Positions 28,633-39,392 are shown, numbered from the stretch's first letter. The stretch: 64,000 nt of DNA from Rickettsiales bacterium (GCA_035765535.1 DASTXE010000004.1:189137-253136), one strand, 5' to 3'. Notes: generated by a model not told the origin, from the letters alone. Numbers and translations are program-made.

Positions 28633-29169
28633 TTAGCGGCTCTGCGCATGCACATTGCGGGTAGCGCTGCCTGCTGCGCTGGGGGAAGTGCCCGTGCCGG
28701 TCTGCTCTAAACCGACATTCTCAAACTCAATCCGCTGGGCATTAGGCACATTGTCCGCAACATTACCGTATTTGGCTGTACTACGGTCAAAATTTGCAGC
28801 AATCGCCTCGAATTTAGCCTTTTCATCCGGTGACAGCGAACTACCCAGATCCGGTGCTTTATGGCTCTGACCGGCTTCCATACCGTGCTGTTTCTGTCTT
28901 TCCGTCTGCGGTTTTTCAATCTTCTGACCGGGTGTGGCCTTGGGAGAAACCTGATCCTTAAGTGCCGTACCAAAATTACGGATACCGCTTCCCATCTGGC
29001 TGGCAGTTTCCTTGGCAGCATTGCCTACCGCACCGAGCAACTGGCCAAAACGCTCGCCTATAGCCTCGATAGCCGCATTACAGGCAGCATCAAAACGCTC
29101 GCGCACGGCCTCCGCAAAAGGCCGTAATGCCTCGTCAATCTTTTGTACAGTGCTTTGGCCGGAGTCCAT
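28633..29169 (-). CDS. hypothetical protein
   Basis: 178-aa ORF with a helical N-half and a low-complexity C-half. No motif recognised. Confidence 0.4.
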   Translation of the reverse strand: MDSGQSTVQKIDEALRPFAEAVRERFDAACNAAIEAIGERFGQLLGAVGNAAKETASQMGSGIRNFGTALKDQVSPKATPGQKIEKPQTERQKQHGMEAGQSHKAPDLGSSLSPDEKAKFEAIAANFDRSTAKYGNVADNVPNAQRIEFENVGLEQTGTGTSPSAAGSATRNVHAQSR

Positions 29170-30082: not shown

Positions 30083-30442
30083 TTATTTGATATAGGTACC
30101 GCTCACGCAAACACGTACAAATCCGGTGCTTTCTTCAACACCGCTGACACTAACCATATCCCCGGGCTTGGCACCCGGAATCGCAATAGCCTCGCGGTCA
30201 CAATCCGATTCCCCCGATGTGAGATGGACGGTGATAGTTTGACCATCTGTTTGCACTTTAAATATTCCGTCTCCATCACGCGCCATAGCAGCAAGGTCTG
30301 CAGAAATCAGCCTGCCTGAATATTGCACTAGCTTGCCGCCTGCAAATGCCTGCTGCTGCACCAGTAGCAACGATAATGACAATGCCAGAAGAAAGAAATA
30401 ATTCGGATACCAAAACACCTTACAACCTATCCGTAAGGTCAA
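30083..30442 (-). CDS. small secreted hypothetical protein
   Basis: 119 aa with a TTG start and a signal-peptide-like FFLLALSLSLLLVQQQAFA. It overlaps the 3' end of the GspE-like gene by 23 nt; the exact start is uncertain. Confidence 0.4.
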   Translation of the reverse strand: MTLRIGCKVFWYPNYFFLLALSLSLLLVQQQAFAGGKLVQYSGRLISADLAAMARDGDGIFKVQTDGQTITVHLTSGESDCDREAIAIPGAKPGDMVSVSGVEESTGFVRVCVSGTYIK

Positions 30443-32207
30443 TCGTGCTGATCAACTCCTGCAGGTCGATCTGGCCTGCCAGCACCTTGTCGATCCCGTC
30501 CAGAGCCATGGGGATAAAGCCGTTATCCATCGCATAATCCTGTATCTGGTTACGCGTCGCACGGGTCGAAATCAGCTCGTCCATGCCTTCGTCGATACGC
30601 AGGATTTCCGTAATCGCAACACGGCCTTTATACCCCTTGCGCTTACATTTGTCGCAGCCGACCGGATCATACACCGTCGGCGGATTTTCAGGATCGAAAT
30701 CCATGATATTGCATTCTTCGCGCGTGGCAAGGCGCGGCCTGCGGCAATGCACACACAGCTTGCGTGCAAGGCGCTGGGCAAGCGAGCAGATCAGCGAACC
30801 TGCCAGCAGATGCGGCGGCACACCGATATCGCTCAGACGTGGGATCGCGCCGATAGCATCGTTCGTATGCAGCGTGGTGTAAACCTGGTGACCCGTCAAC
30901 GCCGCGCGCACGGCCATGATGGCCGTTTCCTCGTCGCGCACTTCGCCCACGAAGATGATGTCCGGGTCCTGGCGCATCAGCGATTTAATGCCGTGCAGGA
31001 AGTCGAGCGACCCTTCGCGGATGCTGCTCTGGCGGATGAGCGGCAGCTGGTATTCCACCGGATCTTCCAGCGTCATGATATTGACATCGATGGAGTTGAT
31101 GTAACTGAGCACCGAATAAAGCGTCGTCGTTTTACCGCTGCCCGTCGGACCGGTCACGATAATGATGCCTTCCGGACGCTTGAGCATCTTCTTCAGCAGC
31201 TTGATGTTGTGGTCGCTGAACCCGAGATTTTCCAGCGGCACGAGCGAGTTCGCCTTGTCGAGCAGACGCATCACGATGTTTTCCCCGTGCACGGTCGGCT
31301 GCGTCGCCACACGGAAATCCACATCGCGACCCATAACATTATAGGAAATACGACCGTCCTGAGGATTACGCGTTTCGGCGATGTTCATGCCCGCCATGAT
31401 CTTGATGCGCACGACCATCGCGTTCCAGTAATCGCGGTGCAGGCTTCGGATCTGGGTCATCTGTCCGTCGATACGGTAACGCAAACGCAGGAATGCACCT
31501 TCCGGCTCGAAATGGATGTCGGACGCGTTATTCTTAATCGCGTCGATCAGCAGCGAATTCACCAGACGCACCGTCGGGTTGACATAGCCTTCCTGCCTGC
31601 CGTCCAGCTGGCGCGTATTTTCGCGGATGCCGGTTTCGATTTCGCGTAAGATACCGTCGATCGACATTTCATATTCGTAATACTGGTCGATCAGTTCCAG
31701 GATTTCCGTTTCCGTACAGAATACCGGAACGATCTTCGTTCCCTTGGGGAAGTTGCGGCGCACCTGGTCGATCGCGAGAATGTTGTACACATCCGCCATC
31801 GCAAGGTTGACTTCCCCATTCTCGAACGACACCGGAATAATTTTATGGCGCAGCGCCAGTTCCTTGGGGATCTGCTTGATAACGCTCGAATCGAGCATCG
31901 TCGATTTCGGATCGAATTTCTGCGCGCCGGCAGACTCTGCCAGCACTTCGCCGAGCGCGGATTCCGTCACGAATCCCATTTCGATCAGGATACCGCCCAG
32001 CAGCTTCTTGGAAGTCTTCTGCTCCAGCAGCGCGATCTGCAATTGGTCCTTGGAAATCAGGCCGAGTTCGATCAGCTTATCGCCCAGGCGCATCGGCTTC
32101 TTGGCCGCACCCGATTCCTGCGCGGACGACGCACCGGCACCCCCAACTGGGGGTTGTGCCATCGGATTCGAGGCATCGCCTGGCAGATTCGGATCCTGGT
32201 TACTCAT
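30420..32207 (-). CDS. GspE/PilB-family secretion ATPase (type II secretion / type IV pilus assembly)
   Basis: 595 aa with a GSPII_E N-terminal-type domain (LGDKLIELGLISKDQLQIALLEQ), Walker A GPTGSGKTTT and a tetracysteine motif CVHCRRP...CDKCKRKGYKGR. Confidence 0.9.
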   Translation of the reverse strand: MSNQDPNLPGDASNPMAQPPVGGAGASSAQESGAAKKPMRLGDKLIELGLISKDQLQIALLEQKTSKKLLGGILIEMGFVTESALGEVLAESAGAQKFDPKSTMLDSSVIKQIPKELALRHKIIPVSFENGEVNLAMADVYNILAIDQVRRNFPKGTKIVPVFCTETEILELIDQYYEYEMSIDGILREIETGIRENTRQLDGRQEGYVNPTVRLVNSLLIDAIKNNASDIHFEPEGAFLRLRYRIDGQMTQIRSLHRDYWNAMVVRIKIMAGMNIAETRNPQDGRISYNVMGRDVDFRVATQPTVHGENIVMRLLDKANSLVPLENLGFSDHNIKLLKKMLKRPEGIIIVTGPTGSGKTTTLYSVLSYINSIDVNIMTLEDPVEYQLPLIRQSSIREGSLDFLHGIKSLMRQDPDIIFVGEVRDEETAIMAVRAALTGHQVYTTLHTNDAIGAIPRLSDIGVPPHLLAGSLICSLAQRLARKLCVHCRRPRLATREECNIMDFDPENPPTVYDPVGCDKCKRKGYKGRVAITEILRIDEGMDELISTRATRNQIQDYAMDNGFIPMALDGIDKVLAGQIDLQELISTIDLTDRL

Positions 32208-32274: not shown

Positions 32275-35200
32275 CTATCCCACCAAGTCAAGCTGGCCGC
32301 GGGTTAGGCGGTCTATCCAGGCTGCGGTCAGCTTTTCATGCAGAGAGTTCTGCCTCAGGCGTTCATTAAGGAACGGAAACGACACATTGTCAAGTGCCTG
32401 ATCCTGATTAAAGCAGGAATATATGTAGCTTGTTGCACCGGTTACAGGATCGACATGTTGCTGGATACATTGCGCGCAGATCTCTTTCATCATGCATTGC
32501 ATCGGTGAGTTGATGCTGCCGATAGCGACATGTCCCGGTTTGAGATACGGTTTCAATATGCCGCGGCGCGCCGCACCCACTGCCGCCATCATGCGGTCCG
32601 AACCGATAGCGATGATATGATCGACAGCTTGCGTTTTGATGGCCGTTTCGCCGAGCCTGCCTTCCGCATAGGCCGCTATTGCCTGCACGATATTGCCGTA
32701 GAACACCTTGTCGTTCGGCCTGTCCGGCGTGAAATCCGCCTGCTCGTCACATGCCCAGACAATCACGTCGGACGCTTTCTCGATTTCTTCAATCTTGTAA
32801 CGGTCGGTGGATTTGCGGTATCCGGCGAAGTAAAGCACCTTGCAGCCATTCTCACGCGCTGCACGGCCGATGGAGAACAGCACCGCGTTACCCAATCCGC
32901 CGCCCACCAGCATGACGGTTTCGTTTTTCGGAATCTCCGTCGGCGCGCCCGTCGGCCCCATCAGCACGACCGGTTCACCCTTTTTGAGATACGCACAGAG
33001 ATTGGAAGAACCGCCCATTTCCAGCACAATAGCGGAAAGTAGCCCCTGCCCTTTATCCACCCATGCTCCCGTGAGCGCCAGCCCTTCCATTAGCAATGTG
33101 GTATCATATGAAGGTGTGTGGGTGCGCGGAGGAGCACTTTGCGACGACCCCGCAGGGGAATCCGAACGGAGTTCGGATGGGGGCAGCGTGCCCCCCTTAA
33201 CTTTTAGCGCATTCATTTCAAAATTTTGCAACCGGTAGAACTGCCCCGGCTCGAATTGCTTCGCAGCCTGTGGCGCCTTCACGATCACTTCCACTATATT
33301 ATGCGTCAAGCGCACCACATCATGCACCGTCGCACGCAACTGCAGGTTCATGAAGGCAAGGAAAGCTGCATCGGAATGCGGCTCCGCCACTTTTCCCCTT
33401 CTTTTCAATATTCTCGAAACGACCGGATATCCCTGCTTCGCGCTGCCCATCGCCTTCACGACATTGCCTGCGAAAGAAGGATGCAAATCACCAAAGAAAC
33501 TGAGCGCCCTGCCATCCGCTTCCACTGCCATCAGCACCTGCGGTGTTTCAGGTTTGGCAACACGTTCCGGCAAAACCGGCTTGCCTTCATCATCCACTGC
33601 CTGAAAATACTTGCCATGCAAGGTAAGTTTCTCCGGCACTTCACGTTGCAACACGGTATTCGGACTTGTCCCTGCTGCCATCAAGACAGTCCTTGCAGGA
33701 ATCGTTAGGGTGCCATCTTGACTCTTAAATTTCACAGCCGCCGCATGGCCATATTTATCGACTTCCACACCCACCGGCTCAAGATTCTCAACGATACCGA
33801 TGCTTTCTTCCAACGCTTTTTCCACTTCTTCGTGGTTCAGGCGGTAAGACGGCGCATCGATCAAACGCTTGCGATATACCATCTTCACGCCGCCCCAGCT
33901 CTCCAGCAGCCCGGCGACATTGGGATTCGGTTTCTTGCGTTCTTCACGGATGGCCTTCGCATGGGCAATGAACTCTTCGGCAATCTCCGTATCTTCCGCA
34001 CCCCAGCCAAGCCTTGCGCCCTGCTCACCGCGGTCTTTCACGAGCACTTCGTAGCGAGACAGGAATTTCTCCACCTGTATAGGATAATAAGCGAGCGATT
34101 CCGTCGCTGTATCAATCGCCGTCAACCCTCCGCCAATCACCACGATCGGCAGGCGTACCTGCAAATTCGCAATGGAATCCATCTTTGCCGCGCCCGAAAG
34201 CTGCAGCGCCATCAGGAAATCCGAAGCCGTGCGCACACCGCGCGCCAGACCGTTCGGCATATCGATCACGGTCGGCCTGCCCGCACCCATGCACAGTGCA
34301 ATATGGTCAAACCCAAGTTCCCATGCGGAATCGATCGTAATCGTACCGCCAAAACGCACACCGCCGATCAATGCGAACGATGCACGCCGCTCCAGCAACA
34401 GACGGATTACTTTCAAGAAATTCTTATCCCAGCGTACCGTGATGCCATATTCCGCCACGCCACCAAAGCCGTACAATGTACGTTCATCGAGGCGCTCGAA
34501 TAATTCTCTGATATCGCGCACCGGCGCAAAAGCCACACGTTCGCCTGTCTGTGTGACGCCAGAAATTTCCGGCGGCAACGGCTCGATCTTGAGCCCGTCA
34601 ATCCCAACAACCGTATGCCCGTCATTGAGCAAATGATGCGCAAGTGTATAGCCAGCAGGCCCCATGCCCGCCACCAGCACCTTGGAACCGGTTTCAGGCC
34701 TCGGCAACGGACGCTCCAGATTCAGCGGGTTCCAGCGCGTGAGCAGCGAGTAAATCTCAAACCCGTAAGGCAGCTCCAGCACATCCATCAGCGTGCGCGT
34801 TTCGGACTGCGGAATATTGACCGGCTCCTGCTTCTGGTAGATACAGGCTTTCATGCAGTCATTGCAGATGCGGTGCCCCGTGCCCGCGCACATCGGATTG
34901 TCGATCACGACTGTTGCCAACGCGCCGAGCGGAATACCTTCGCTTTTCAGGAAGTTCATCTCGGAAATCTTCTCTTCCAACGGACAGCCGGCGAGCGTAA
35001 TCTCCAGAGAGTTTTTCTTAAAGGAAGTCGTATTGGTTTCCTTATTCGTCTCTTTCATTCCTTTGGAACAGGAATCCTTGCCCTGGTTATGGCACCAGAT
35101 GCAGTAATTGGCTTCGTCTAAGCCCTTGGCCAATGTGACACCGTCATCCGTCAGCGCGAATCCTTCGCGCGCACGGCGATGGTGTGGATCGAGCTTGATG

Positions 35201-35886
35201 ACCGTGACGCCGTCCACCACTTCCGTCTCATACGCCACAAGATTAAGCGGATCGAGCTTGCGCGGCGTCTTAAACAGAATACCTGCCTTATGCTTCTCTT
35301 GCCCTTGCGGCGTGAGTAGGGCCCAGGCGGCGTATTCGGTTGCAATACGGATCGCATCTGCATGCTGTTCCGCTTTATCCAACCACGCCATAACGTTACG
35401 TGAGAACGTCAGCTCAAACACCGTCTCCACCATATGGCCTTCAGGGTGCACCGTATGAGAATCCGAAGGCAGGTCAAATGCTGGCAGGGCGTCCTGCTTC
35501 TTAAACAAGCTTTCAAGCTGCGCACGTAAAGCAGCACCATCTAATTTTGCAGCCTCATCCGGCTTAACGGATTTTGCAGCCTTGCGCTGTACGAACAGGC
35601 GTTTGCAGCTGTAAAGCGGCGCGAGCGTAAAATGCCGCTCCTTGAGCGCAGTCACTTCCGAGCGGATGCCGAACAGTTCTGCAATAAACTCTTCCAGATG
35701 CGGCGCAAGATCGATGATTAATTGGGACTCTTCCTTCAGCACAGGCTTAACGGCACGCGCCGATACCAGCCGATTATGCAGCGCCACATCTCGCTGTTTC
35801 AGCTCTTCGATAAATTTTGTATCCAGTGTTACCAGTCCAGCACGCGTATATAGCTGATCGAAAGTCGCCTCAAATCCGAGTTTCAT
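32275..35886 (-). CDS. 1203-aa fusion oxidoreductase: unknown N-domain + GltD/NfnB-like Fe-S/FAD-NAD(P) module + PyrK/NfnA-like ferredoxin-reductase module
   Basis: Cys clusters [18 protein letters not shown] and [16 protein letters not shown] are followed by [14 protein letters not shown] and [13 protein letters not shown] dinucleotide folds. The C-terminus has FEPGQFYRL ... [10 protein letters not shown] and a Cys-rich tail [12 protein letters not shown]. The start overlaps the cysNC stop (ATGA). Confidence 0.75.
33124..33196. repeat. palindromic element A, copy 2 (inside the oxidoreductase gene, antisense to it)
   Basis: gcgcggaggagcactttgcgacgaccccgcaggggaatccgaacggagttcggatgggggcagcgtgcccccc. 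Same + strand orientation as copy 1. Confidence 0.8.
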
Positions 35887-37835
35887 ATCCCACCTGAAAT
35901 CACGTCGCGCAGGTCTTTTACCGGCTCGACAAACTGTTTCTGCACATATTCCATGAGCATTGTAACGCTTTCTTCCACGGAAAGCTGTGCTGTGTCAATA
36001 ATCAGTTCGGGATTTTCCGGTTCTTCATAGGGAGCGGAGACACCTGTGAATTCAGGAATCTCGCCTGTCAGCGCCTTTCGGTAGAGTCCTTTAGGGTCGC
36101 GCGCAATGCAGGTATTGATATCCGTCTTCACGTAAACCATGTTGAAATAATCACCCCCGGCAGCACGCGCGCGGCGGCGGTCATCGCGATAAGGCGAGAT
36201 AAAGGACGCGATCACAATCATGCCAGCTTGCGCAAACAAGGTAGCCACCTCGCCGATGCGGCGGATATTTTCAGTGCGGTCTTTCGCCGAAAACCCAAGA
36301 TCTTTATTGAGCCCGCTGCGCACATTATCCCCGTCCAGCACATAAGTCTGGTAGCCCTTGGCAAACAGGCGTTGCTGCAATTCCTGCGCAATCGTGGACT
36401 TGCCGGAGCCCGAAAGGCCCGTAAACCATAAGATGCCGCCCTGATGGCCGTTGGCGAGCGACCGTTGCACAGGCGTAATGCGGGAATCCACCGCCGTGAT
36501 ATTCTGCGACTTCACGCGCTCTGCACTTACGCGCTGGTCGTGGAACCCTTCCAGGTCGATGATACCGCCGCCGCAAACGTCATAATCCTCTAGGATCACG
36601 AAACGCCCAAGCTTCGGATTATGCTCGAATGCGTCCAGCGCCACCACACCGCGCGTATGGAACACGACTTCCGCGACCGCACCGCGTTCGACCGATGCCT
36701 GCTGCGCACGGCCGAGATTGTTGGTGTCCACCACCTGCTCGATCTCACGCACTTCCGCCGTAACTTCAGTGGTAGCGATCTTGAGTTTATAGCGCTTACC
36801 CTGCGTGAGCGGCTTATGGCCGAGCCAGAACAGCTTTGCCCGGAACATATTGGTAATGAAAGGCGCATGCTTCGTGTGGCTTGCCACTGCGCCGCGTTCC
36901 ACGAATATCTGTTCGCTGAGCGTAATGCCGACCGACTGGCCTGCTGTCGCAGAAATCGGCAGGATAGAGCTACCCCATTCCTCAATGCTCGCCACTTTCA
37001 CCGTGCGATTGACGGGAGAAAATACGAGTTCATCCCCTACTTTCAGCGAACCGCTTTCAATGCGCCCAACAATAATGCGACGCTCATCGAATTTATACAC
37101 ATCCTGCACAGGGAAACGCAGCGGCAGCTGGTTCAGCGGCAACGTCGCGGAAAAACCGTCCAGCGCTTCCAGAACGGAAGGGCCTTTATACCACCCCATC
37201 TGCGGGGAACGCGCTGCGATATTATCCCCTTCACGCGCCGAAACAGGGATTACAAATGCCGGTGTTACACCGATTTCCTTAAGATATGTGCGGTATTCAT
37301 CCTCGATTTTACGGAATGCCTGCTCGTCATACCCGACCATATCCATTTTGTTGACGAGCACCGCAATCTGGCGCACGCCCAGCAGGTGCAACAGGTAGCC
37401 GTGGCGCTTGGATTGCTCCTTTACACCTTCCTTTGCGTCGATGATCAGCAGCGCCGCTTCGCTTTGAGCTGCACCAGAAATCATGTTCTTCAGGAACTCT
37501 TTATGCCCCGGCGCATCGATCACAACGTAATTGCGCGCCTGTGTCTTGAACCATATCTGGGTCGTATCGATCGTGATGCCCTGGTCGCGCTCAGCCTGCA
37601 GCGCATCCATCAGGAACGACCACTCAAAAGGCATGCCGCGCTTTTTGCAGGATTGCTGGATCTGTTCGAACTTACCATCCGGCAGCGAACCGGTATCATG
37701 CAGGAGCCGCCCGACAAACGTGGATTTGCCATGATCGACATGCCCCACAATCACAATCTTCAAAGCGGAATCGGTGGCAGCCTGCTGCACCTGAACAGCA
37801 AATTCCGGCTCTTTACGTGCAAGATTGTAACTCAT
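35883..37835 (-). CDS. cysNC: bifunctional sulfate adenylyltransferase subunit 1 / adenylylsulfate kinase (CysN-CysC fusion)
   Basis: 650 aa with GTPase motifs [14 protein letters not shown] and NKMD, plus the C-terminal APS-kinase P-loop GLSGSGKST. Confidence 0.92.
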
Positions 37836-38066: not shown

Positions 38067-38912
38067 CTACATATACCCGGCTTCGCGCAGGCGCTCGAAG
38101 CTCGATTCATCTTCATCGGCGCCCATCGGGCGGCCGGAACGCTCCGGTACTTTGGTCGTGCGTAATTCTTCAATGATCTCATCGATCGTAGCGGCCGTGC
38201 TTTCGACCGGGAAAGTAATTCCCTTTTCACCCAGCGAACGGAAGCGCATCATCTTGCCGCCGAAATCCTTGCCGAAGCAATCATGCCACGGGCGTGCATA
38301 GTAAAGCGGAACGATGGGGATATTTTCGCGCTTGATATACTGCCAGATATCCAGCTCCGTCCAGTGCAGCAGCGGGTGGATACGTAAAGATGTGCCCGGA
38401 GCGAAATCCGTCTTGAACTGGTCCCAGAATTCCGGCGGCTGGTCTTTCACATCCCAGTTACCTTCCTGCCCGCGCGGGCTGAAATAGCGCTCCTTGGCGC
38501 GTGTGCCTTCTTCATCGCGGCGGATACCCGCGATGATGCCTGTAAACCCATTCTTCTCAATGACTTCCTTAAGGCCGAGCGTCTTGCGTGACGCCACACG
38601 AGCCGCATGCGGCAAAGTCGCATCTGTCTGTTCGATCGGCGGGCATTCATGCGAGATCAGATTGACGTCCCATTCCTTCACATAACGGTCACGAAATGCA
38701 TAGACTTCGTCCATTTCCAGCCCGGTATCGCAATGGATAAGCGGAAACGGCACGCGCCCAAAAAATGCCTTGCGCGCAAGATGGACCATCACGTTGCTGT
38801 CCTTGCCGAAGGACCACAGCATGGCGATTTTGTCTATTTTGTTGAATGCTTCACGGAAAATATAGATCGACTGGGATTCCAGGGTCGAAAGATGATCGGG
38901 CGTGTTTTCCAT
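38067..38912 (-). CDS. cysD: sulfate adenylyltransferase subunit 2
   Basis: 281 aa with the PP-loop-like SFGKDS. CysD-type sequence continues through ...RFRSLGE. Confidence 0.9.
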   Translation of the reverse strand: MENTPDHLSTLESQSIYIFREAFNKIDKIAMLWSFGKDSNVMVHLARKAFFGRVPFPLIHCDTGLEMDEVYAFRDRYVKEWDVNLISHECPPIEQTDATLPHAARVASRKTLGLKEVIEKNGFTGIIAGIRRDEEGTRAKERYFSPRGQEGNWDVKDQPPEFWDQFKTDFAPGTSLRIHPLLHWTELDIWQYIKRENIPIVPLYYARPWHDCFGKDFGGKMMRFRSLGEKGITFPVESTAATIDEIIEELRTTKVPERSGRPMGADEDESSFERLREAGYM

Positions 38913-38999: not shown

Positions 39000-39392
39000 T
39001 TAGTCTTCTACGTCGATATTGTCGCCTTCAAACGACAGTCCCGACTTGCCCTGTACGGCAACGGTAAGATGCTCTTCAGCGTCATCTTCCACTGCGCCGC
39101 CTTCTTCAGCAAGCATTTCCTGAACTTCTTCGCTGCTCTTGCTCGGGCGGGACATGTATTCGACCACCTGCTTTTTGCGGAAAGACTGGATGATGTCCTC
39201 GCTAACCTGTTCCAGGTCGATTGTCTTATCACCAATTTCGCGCAGTGAAATCACCGCGTCTTTATCGTTATCACGGTCAACGGTCAGCGCCGAACCGGAA
39301 GCAATCTGCTTCGCGCGATGCGCGGCAATCACCACGAGTTCAAAACGGTTGGGAACGTGCATGATGCAATCTTCTACGGTAACGCGTGCCAT
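39000..39392 (-). CDS. rpoZ: DNA-directed RNA polymerase subunit omega
   Basis: 130 aa with N-terminus [30 protein letters not shown]. Confidence 0.92.

Follow-up and report, generated by a model that had tools for sequence, protein, structure and literature searches.

A one-chain Nfn-like iron-sulfur flavoprotein encoded with cysNC in a Rickettsiales bacterium is a candidate general electron donor with sulfite reductase among its clients

The stretch of DNA analysed here, referred to as the window, comprises 64,000 nucleotides (nt) of a Rickettsiales bacterium (GCA_035765535.1, DASTXE010000004.1:189137-253136). It contains a minus-strand run of genes in which rpoZ (39000-39392), cysD and cysNC are followed by an open reading frame (ORF) of 1203 amino acids (aa) encoding P0001, a protein that fuses a GltD/NfnB-like and a PyrK/NfnA-like redox module behind an N-terminal RP005_N domain. 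We propose that this fusion is a general NAD(P)H-driven electron donor resembling ferredoxin-NADP reductase (FNR), that the sulfite reductase CysI is one of its clients, and that it replaces the CysJ and FNR missing from this genome, a reading to which we assign a probability of roughly 55%. Its foundation is a set of direct observations, namely the architecture of the protein and its cofactor-ligand motifs, the linkage to the cys operon, the absence of CysJ and FNR from the window genome, and the in-situ replacement of the fusion gene by an FNR gene in relatives. The features that carry the argument are as follows.

38067..38912, minus strand: cysD, sulfate adenylyltransferase small subunit, 281 aa (NF003587, 347 bits against a cut-off of 195)
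35883..37835, minus strand: cysNC, sulfate adenylyltransferase large subunit plus adenosine 5'-phosphosulfate (APS) kinase, 650 aa (Pfam GTP_EFTU and APS_kinase)
35883..35886, minus strand: ATGA overlap, fusion start within the cysNC stop (sequence reading), AGGTGGGATATGAAA
32275..35886, minus strand: fusion, RP005/PRK06567-family Fe-S flavoprotein P0001, 1203 aa (NF005128 match; PF27156 and PF07992)
35182..35886, minus strand: RP005_N domain, aa 1 to about 235 (PF27156 in precomputed annotation; nearest Atlas clusters are RP005_N)
34807..35124, minus strand: Fe-S region with two Cys clusters, aa about 255-360 (conserved Cys; match to the N-terminal part of GltD, YgfK and NfnB)
33397..34689, minus strand: GltD/NfnB-like flavin adenine dinucleotide (FAD) and NAD(P)H module, aa about 400-830 (Pyr_redox_2; PDB matches)
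32512..33354, minus strand: PyrK/NfnA-like module of ferredoxin-reductase fold, aa about 845-1125 (PDB matches)
32413..32496, minus strand: C-terminal Cys4 motif C1131-x5-C1137-x2-C1140...C1158 (PyrK [2Fe-2S] type)

Direct reading of the sequence bears out the first-pass annotation in placing the start of the 1203-aa gene inside the stop codon of cysNC: the ATG of the fusion (35886-35884) shares bases with the TGA of cysNC (35885-35883). Homologues align from residue 1-3, which shows that the start codon is correct, and a Shine-Dalgarno-like AGGTGG at 35890-35895, 3 nt 5' of the ATG, is likely to be the ribosome-binding site of the fusion. At five related loci (L006, L009, L011, L092 and L117), cysNC and the fusion likewise share an ATGA or lie only 0-3 nt apart. 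The window cysD is 75-83% identical to the cysD of related operons, and the window CysNC scores 355 bits against the CysN model TIGR02034 (cut-off 336), 245 bits against TIGR00455 (cut-off 139) and 616 bits against NF004035, under the cut-off of 715.

The window itself contains no cysH, cysI or cysJ, as the earlier reading had stated, and we searched for the canonical genes in the whole window genome (G000; 2.6 Mb in 6 contigs, 100% complete). This revealed that cysI (576 aa), a sirC-like siroheme gene and cysH lie adjacent to one another on contig 1, while no match to the CysJ model TIGR01931 was found anywhere in the genome. An NAD_binding_1/FNR-type protein was likewise not found in this genome or in the related genome G137, nor was a clear flavodoxin found in the window genome, which does encode one small [2Fe-2S] ferredoxin (112 aa) and, on contig 6, a separate GltD-like protein of 484 aa (411 bits). 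As cysI and cysH were found and CysJ was not, the canonical pathway is present except for its NADPH-linked electron donor. That Alphaproteobacteria may have cysI but no cysJ is a known gap, for which DUF2849 has been proposed as the electron source for sulfite reduction (bioRxiv 10.1101/072470). DUF2849 was present in G060 only and was not found in the window genome, G137, G289 or G282, and we rejected it as the CysI donor on the basis of these absences. To our knowledge, DUF2849 has no known redox cofactor.

In relatives of the same order the fusion gene closes an intact cysI-sirC-cysH-cysD-cysNC-fusion operon (L006, L008, L009, L010, L087, L124 and L125; genomes including G137, G375 and G394). 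This is the ancestral operon in the order, and its preservation in relatives indicates that the window arrangement is a split remnant of it. Linkage takes other forms elsewhere: cysI-sirC-cysH-fusion at L013, cysH-cysD-cysNC-fusion in G060 and G180, cysI adjoining the fusion in G157, cysNC adjoining it in G381 (same family as the window genome), a 740-aa sulfite reductase type followed by sirC and the fusion in G282 and G128, and a 754-aa sulfite reductase type followed by cysH, cysD, cysN and the fusion in G245. The fusion is also linked to a cys cluster in a Nitrosomonas locus (L083) and to a divergent cys cluster in a locus from Bryobacteraceae (L079). In all, at least eight lineages from Alphaproteobacteria, Betaproteobacteria and Acidobacteria show linkage of the fusion to sulfite reductase or cys clusters, in distinct gene orders and with three reductase types, and this variety of reductase subtypes and gene orders argues for function rather than inherited synteny.

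The slot occupied by the fusion has also been refilled. G306 and G342, from another family within the order, have the gene for an Fpr-type FNR of 273 aa at the end of the operon (cysI-sirC-cysH-cysD-cysNC-FNR), while G289 has three genes between cysNC and mshE (L086, G289:C2 2645-4656): a DUF2238 gene, a stand-alone RP005_N gene of 187 aa and an Fpr-type FNR gene of 271 aa. These Fpr-type proteins (FAD_binding_6 plus NAD_binding_1), of about 270 aa with one FAD and no Fe-S cluster, occupy the same position after cysNC as the fusion but have no detectable similarity to it; the 271-aa protein, for which this also holds, is the only FNR-type gene product of G289. In two families the fusion has therefore given way to an FNR at its own place in the operon, a non-orthologous displacement. 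The stand-alone RP005_N of G289 shares 34% identity with the window protein over residues 1-208 of the latter and stops where the domain does. No other clear stand-alone copy was found among the 101 genomes sampled from the order, and this one could be either a functional adaptor or a truncated remnant. Fpr-type FNR genes also adjoin sulfite reductase genes in G150/G297, G093 and G228. Across 301 genomes sampled from the class, 76 carry the fusion, 46 an Fpr-type FNR and 2 both (odds ratio 0.11, naive p 1.5e-4), and among the 101 genomes of the order the full-length fusion is present in 59, an Fpr-type FNR in 8 and both in none (naive p 6e-4); these statistics ignore relatedness, and the exclusivity is a trend rather than a probability, which lowers its weight for our proposal. 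The class tallies include two genomes flagged as unpublished, G240 and G040, and no specific claim is based on either.

To describe the product of the gene, we divided P0001 into four parts: the helical RP005_N domain, the GltD/NfnB-like module, the PyrK/NfnA-like module and the Cys4 tail. The three-part architecture given in the first-pass annotation stands on domain matches and conserved cysteines, but the N-terminal domain measures about 235 aa and not ~260. In a direct Pfam search Pyr_redox_2 was the sole match (E 1.4e-10), and no flavodoxin domain was found; the RP005_N assignment (PF27156) comes from precomputed annotation and the Atlas, the model being absent from the Pfam set searched directly. 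The first Cys cluster of the Fe-S region (C262-x2-C265-x7-C273...C301-P) and the second (C333...C341-x2-C344-x3-C348) are 94-100% conserved among 117 homologues; precomputed annotation places PF14691 Fer4_20 on some members of the family. All of the 117 full-length homologues keep the GxGxxG motifs at 407 and 585 and the four cysteines at 1131, 1137, 1140 and 1158. In sequence searches of the PDB, residues about 298-653 match the NfnI large subunit (5jca_L), NfnII (5vj7) and GltD (7mfm), and residues about 934-1050 match NfnA (4ylf_A, E 4e-10), 5jca_S and PyrK (1ep3_B). NCBIfam matches to GltD, NfnB-like, YgfK and PyrK-like models are weak, and NF004862, a sulfide/dihydroorotate dehydrogenase-like model, reaches 64.5 bits, under its cut-off.

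For RP005_N, an AlphaFold2 model from alignment A1 (mean predicted local distance difference test score, pLDDT, 81; above 90 across most of residues 1-200) predicts a helical bundle at residues 1-200 followed by a beta hairpin at 219-232. A Foldseek search of this model against the PDB gave no match at E <=0.001, and the best result of a wide VIA-align search (a helix bundle of a sigma factor, Z 6.0 across 64 residues) is at the background for helical models; this want of a fold match in PDB searches with a predicted structure is no proof of a new fold.

The fusion is not new as such, since it belongs to the catalogued and uncharacterised RP005/PRK06567 family. The NF005128/PRK06567 model scores 771.7 bits on it, against an equivalog cut-off of 1072, with profile positions 137-838 of 1031 matched, and by this sequence criterion the window protein represents a related subfamily of PRK06567 and not the curated equivalog. 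The succession of RP005_N (PF27156) and a pyridine-nucleotide oxidoreductase module (PF07992) is annotated on P0001 and its homologues, of which there are more than 8000 at full length, with 60-75% identity across Alphaproteobacteria, Betaproteobacteria (Gallionella, Nitrosomonas, Nitrotoga) and Acidobacteria (Bryobacterales). The window protein is about 60-75% identical to members of this large free-living clade and 32-45% identical to those from small genomes. Members of the family have been described as "chimeric GltD-UbiB proteins" in nearly every Rickettsiales genome (PMC3641634). The catalogued members share the N-terminal domain and three-part architecture of the window protein, which differs from them in lying in a cys operon, an operon that classical Rickettsiales lack.

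We suggest the following model, in which the path of the electrons, the nature of the acceptors and any bifurcation at a flavin are predictions from sequence. NAD(P)H would donate electrons to the fusion at either or both of the flavin/nucleotide sites, and the fusion would relay them singly to acceptor proteins by way of its [2Fe-2S] centre and its two [4Fe-4S] centres, thereby filling in the window genome the part usually played by CysJ or ferredoxin-NADP reductase. Translational coupling to cysNC would ensure that it is made along with the sulfate-activating enzymes, and it would give CysI its six electrons either directly or via the small ferredoxin of the cell. Other ferredoxin-dependent housekeeping enzymes would also be served, and relatives without sulfate assimilation would retain the fusion for this reason. 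In this order the heavy electron demand of sulfite reduction would have led to recruitment of the gene to the last position in the sulfate-assimilation operon.

The proposed role is analogous to that of CysJ, an NADPH-driven donor to the CysI haemoprotein that is encoded with cys genes, although the fusion is unrelated to CysJ except for the FNR-like fold and has Fe-S clusters instead of a flavodoxin/flavin mononucleotide (FMN) domain. In the anaerobic sulfite reductase AsrABC, the PyrK-like module AsrB feeds the siroheme subunit. DsrL, an NfnB/GltD-like NAD(P)H partner of the siroheme sulfite reductase DsrAB (PMC7596348), sets a precedent for an NfnB-like protein as the partner of such an enzyme. 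The DsrL and AsrB systems are dissimilatory or anaerobic and employ separate proteins, whereas the fusion joins both modules and is linked to assimilatory CysI-type enzymes. As far as our literature search reached, an FNR/CysJ-equivalent role for this family is new.

Several observations weigh against this proposal, and in particular against a role confined to sulfur. Among the 80 best related loci, about 70 (~85%) have no cys genes within 8 kb and about 10 do. In the class sample, the fusion occurs together with a NIR_SIR protein in 36 genomes, alone in 40, and the reductase occurs without the fusion in 119 (odds ratio 0.8); thus 40 of the 76 fusion-bearing genomes have no sulfite or nitrite reductase, and many of these are nearly complete and encode an orthologue with 55-65% identity to the window protein. 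Even within the family of the window genome, G361 (100% complete) has kept the fusion with neither a sulfite reductase nor CysNC, and in G328, of the same genus, the fusion (L126, G328:C8) lies beside rpoZ and mshE and away from cys genes. In G174 (L099, G174:C2 623-10447), cysD and cysNC are followed by two unannotated ORFs of 72 and 262 aa and then the fusion, and neither cysH nor a siroheme reductase was found in this 99% complete genome; the organism may make 3'-phosphoadenosine 5'-phosphosulfate (PAPS) for sulfation only. The 25 genomes with a strict CysI divide into 7-8 with the fusion and no CysJ, 2 with both, 7 with CysJ only and 8 with neither, so that complementarity between fusion and CysJ is weak; G181 and G194 combine the fusion with a CysJ adjacent to CysI. 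Furthermore, 79 of the 155 sulfite reductase genomes have neither the fusion nor an Fpr-type FNR nor CysJ, which means that other donors exist. The matches of both halves of the fusion to solved Nfn subunits are remote (E 1e-14 to 1e-9), and we found no functional study of any RP005/PRK06567 member in the literature.

Two further observations concern these genomes. A different cys cluster is present in G328 (G328:C6:41205-44295), comprising a sulfite reductase and a CysN of 405 aa that is only 34% identical, and replacement of the G328 cys pathway by transfer is suggested. Among 20 genomes picked as free of sulfite reductase, no neighbour of the fusion recurs, CtaA and Pgk appearing sporadically; one of these genomes, G180, does have a reductase 27 kb from the fusion.

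Given the lack of association with NIR_SIR and the weak complementarity with CysJ, we rejected a dedicated CysJ replacement as the sole role of the fusion. It is not dedicated to sulfur assimilation, as is evident from its wide occurrence without cys linkage and from the carriers without a reductase. The first-pass annotation had offered the fusion as an electron source for the reductive steps of sulfur assimilation; operon linkage, the absence of CysJ and displacement by FNR uphold this idea, but not as a dedicated function. The check on co-occurrence with cys genes that it proposed yields linkage in at least eight lineages on one side and the unlinked loci and reductase-free genomes just enumerated on the other. 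It had also stated that wide occurrence without cys linkage, together with a complete CysH/CysIJ pathway elsewhere in the genome, would refute it: the family is widespread without such linkage, and cysH and cysI do lie elsewhere in the genome but cysJ was not found.

The alternative that survives best is that the fusion is a housekeeping oxidoreductase without any tie to sulfur, its place after cysNC reflecting inherited synteny and the ATGA overlap reflecting compact packing. That most family members have no cys neighbours, that a siroheme reductase is absent from 40 of 76 carriers, and that G361 retains the fusion without a cys pathway would all be expected if this were so, as would the cysD..cysNC..fusion order of G174 despite its lack of cysH and sulfite reductase. 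The downstream mshE is equally syntenic and clearly unrelated, and the family is found in nearly every Rickettsiales genome (PMC3641634). However, neutral synteny is hard to square with a slot refilled by FNR in two families, and does not account for a linkage to sulfite reductase or cys genes that recurs in varied gene orders, with three reductase types, in Alphaproteobacteria, Betaproteobacteria and Acidobacteria. All other known CysI donors that we searched for were, moreover, not found in the window genome. We regard a purely housekeeping enzyme as a serious contender, if a somewhat improbable one.

A second alternative is an Nfn-type bifurcating transhydrogenase that acts between NADPH, NAD+ and ferredoxin to serve nucleotide pools or low-potential ferredoxin, with sulfite reductase as no direct partner. 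NfnAB, NfnI and NfnII (4ylf, 5jca, 5vj7) are the closest structural relatives by sequence and the best PDB matches for both halves: like the fusion, they combine a GltD-like part for FAD and NAD(P)H that carries the motifs of two Fe-S clusters with a PyrK-like part for FAD that carries a [2Fe-2S] motif. The GltD/NfnB-like part of the fusion has two invariant Rossmann motifs and is followed by another nucleotide-binding module, of FNR type, and in Betaproteobacteria an RnfB-like polyferredoxin is encoded 3' of the gene. This similarity is nevertheless remote and under every curated cut-off, and whereas NfnAB is a heterodimer of two subunits, the window protein is a single chain in which the modules are fused in reversed order, B-like before A-like, behind an additional RP005_N of about 235 aa; its family is found in Proteobacteria of aerobic type and in Acidobacteria. 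The [2Fe-2S] cluster of NfnA is ligated by Asp and three Cys, but the motif of the fusion has four Cys, as in PyrK. A transhydrogenase would also leave unexplained the adjacency of the fusion to sulfite reductase genes in the absence of cysDN (L013, G282, G128 and G157), and we consider it unlikely.

Participation in a non-canonical sulfur pathway, which the first-pass annotation had offered as its other possibility, fared poorly. The fusion would then be a SudAB-like polysulfide/sulfide dehydrogenase or act in a step linked to PAPS or APS, as might be read into the weak NF004862 match and into the cysD..cysNC..fusion arrangement of G174 in the absence of cysH and sulfite reductase, the latter being the one weak hint in its favour. 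The window genome has standard CysH and CysI, sulfate-activation genes are entirely absent from many carriers, and neither Foldseek nor VIA-align recognised a substrate-binding domain in the RP005_N model. The title of PDB 5jca names NfnI ferredoxin:NADP oxidoreductase, which we take to be the same enzyme as Pyrococcus SudAB. We judge such a pathway very improbable. As to the database name, "2-polyprenylphenol hydroxylase" is a legacy name for the FNR-like fold. A literal glutamate synthase small subunit fused to a hydroxylase of the ubiquinone pathway, for which the names carried over from NF005128, NF009415 and models like them are the only basis, is effectively refuted by GltD scores far under the cut-offs (TIGR01317, 40.2 bits against 447.7; TIGR01318, 28.7 against 483), by the separate 484-aa GltD-like gene (411 bits) of the window genome, and by Ehrlichia, where the family is present and glutamate synthase (GOGAT) absent (PMC4251998).

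The window holds two further features near or within the fusion gene.

30420..32207, minus strand: MshE/GspE-type ATPase with an N-terminal motif for binding cyclic di-guanosine monophosphate (TIGR02533, 504 bits; NF053729, 62 bits)
33118..33196, strand not assigned: in-frame copy of a dispersed repeat, ~72 nt, GC-rich hairpin (blastn against the genome), GGGGGCAGCGTGCCCCC

Downstream of the fusion lie the MshE/GspE-type ATPase gene, fpg, purH and hemF. As mshE also stands 3' of the fusion or its FNR substitute at L009, L086, L125, L126 and L127, in several genera and two families, the ATPase is syntenic with the fusion, and it is probably unrelated to it in function. In G289, G375 and G394, a prepilin peptidase gene borders the ancestral cys operon on its opposite side. 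Two minus-strand ORFs, one of 119 aa (30083-30442) between mshE and fpg and one of 178 aa (28633-29169) between fpg and purH, match nothing in NCBIfam or Pfam, and a scan for promoters and terminators gave no signal beyond shuffled expectation. The repeat adds ~24 residues (aa about 897-921) to a variable loop of the PyrK-like module; further copies of 55-72 nt with 88-98% identity lie on C2 (near 42649), C3 (near 142555) and C4 (near 59240, 101667 and 205184). The closest homologues are without this insert and some other members bear unrelated inserts in the same loop, for which reason the repeat is probably tolerated.

Several related loci have features of their own. The sulfite-reductase-like proteins of 740-770 aa at L089, L090 and L091 (G282, G128 and G245) are 22-24% identical to the CysI of the window genome and form a long, little-studied subtype that adjoins sirC and the fusion. 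Small accessory genes have been inserted in the cys operons of relatives (L087 6287-6868 and 9969-10397; L007; L010), a zeta-toxin-like P-loop kinase gene between cysNC and the fusion and a gene resembling those for 23S rRNA intervening-sequence proteins and bAvd between cysH and cysD. In Betaproteobacteria, the fusion at L020 (5872-12409) follows genes for an arginyl/leucyl-tRNA protein transferase (bpt/ate) and a class-2 pyrD, and is followed 48 nt downstream by the gene for the RnfB-like polyferredoxin, without other rnf genes; we observed this order at only 3-5 betaproteobacterial loci.

The source of electrons for sulfite reduction in the many Alphaproteobacteria that have CysI and lack CysJ is unsettled, and the data on the fusion offer a testable assignment. 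They also link the missing-CysJ problem to the function of the "GltD-UbiB chimera" of Rickettsiales. A broader reading, which we put forward tentatively as possible rather than probable, is that in many Alphaproteobacteria, Rickettsiales among them, the RP005 family provides the NAD(P)H-linked reductase that has long been missing, a single-chain Nfn-like enzyme in place of both FNR and CysJ, with the helical and hitherto unclassified RP005_N as a docking domain or adaptor for clients such as sulfite reductase; the survival of RP005_N as a stand-alone gene beside the FNR of G289 hints at such a part. If the general donor role that we propose is correct, it would fill a pathway gap in the metabolic reconstructions of thousands of genomes and metagenome-assembled genomes, and would show an Nfn-type architecture at work in aerobic organisms.

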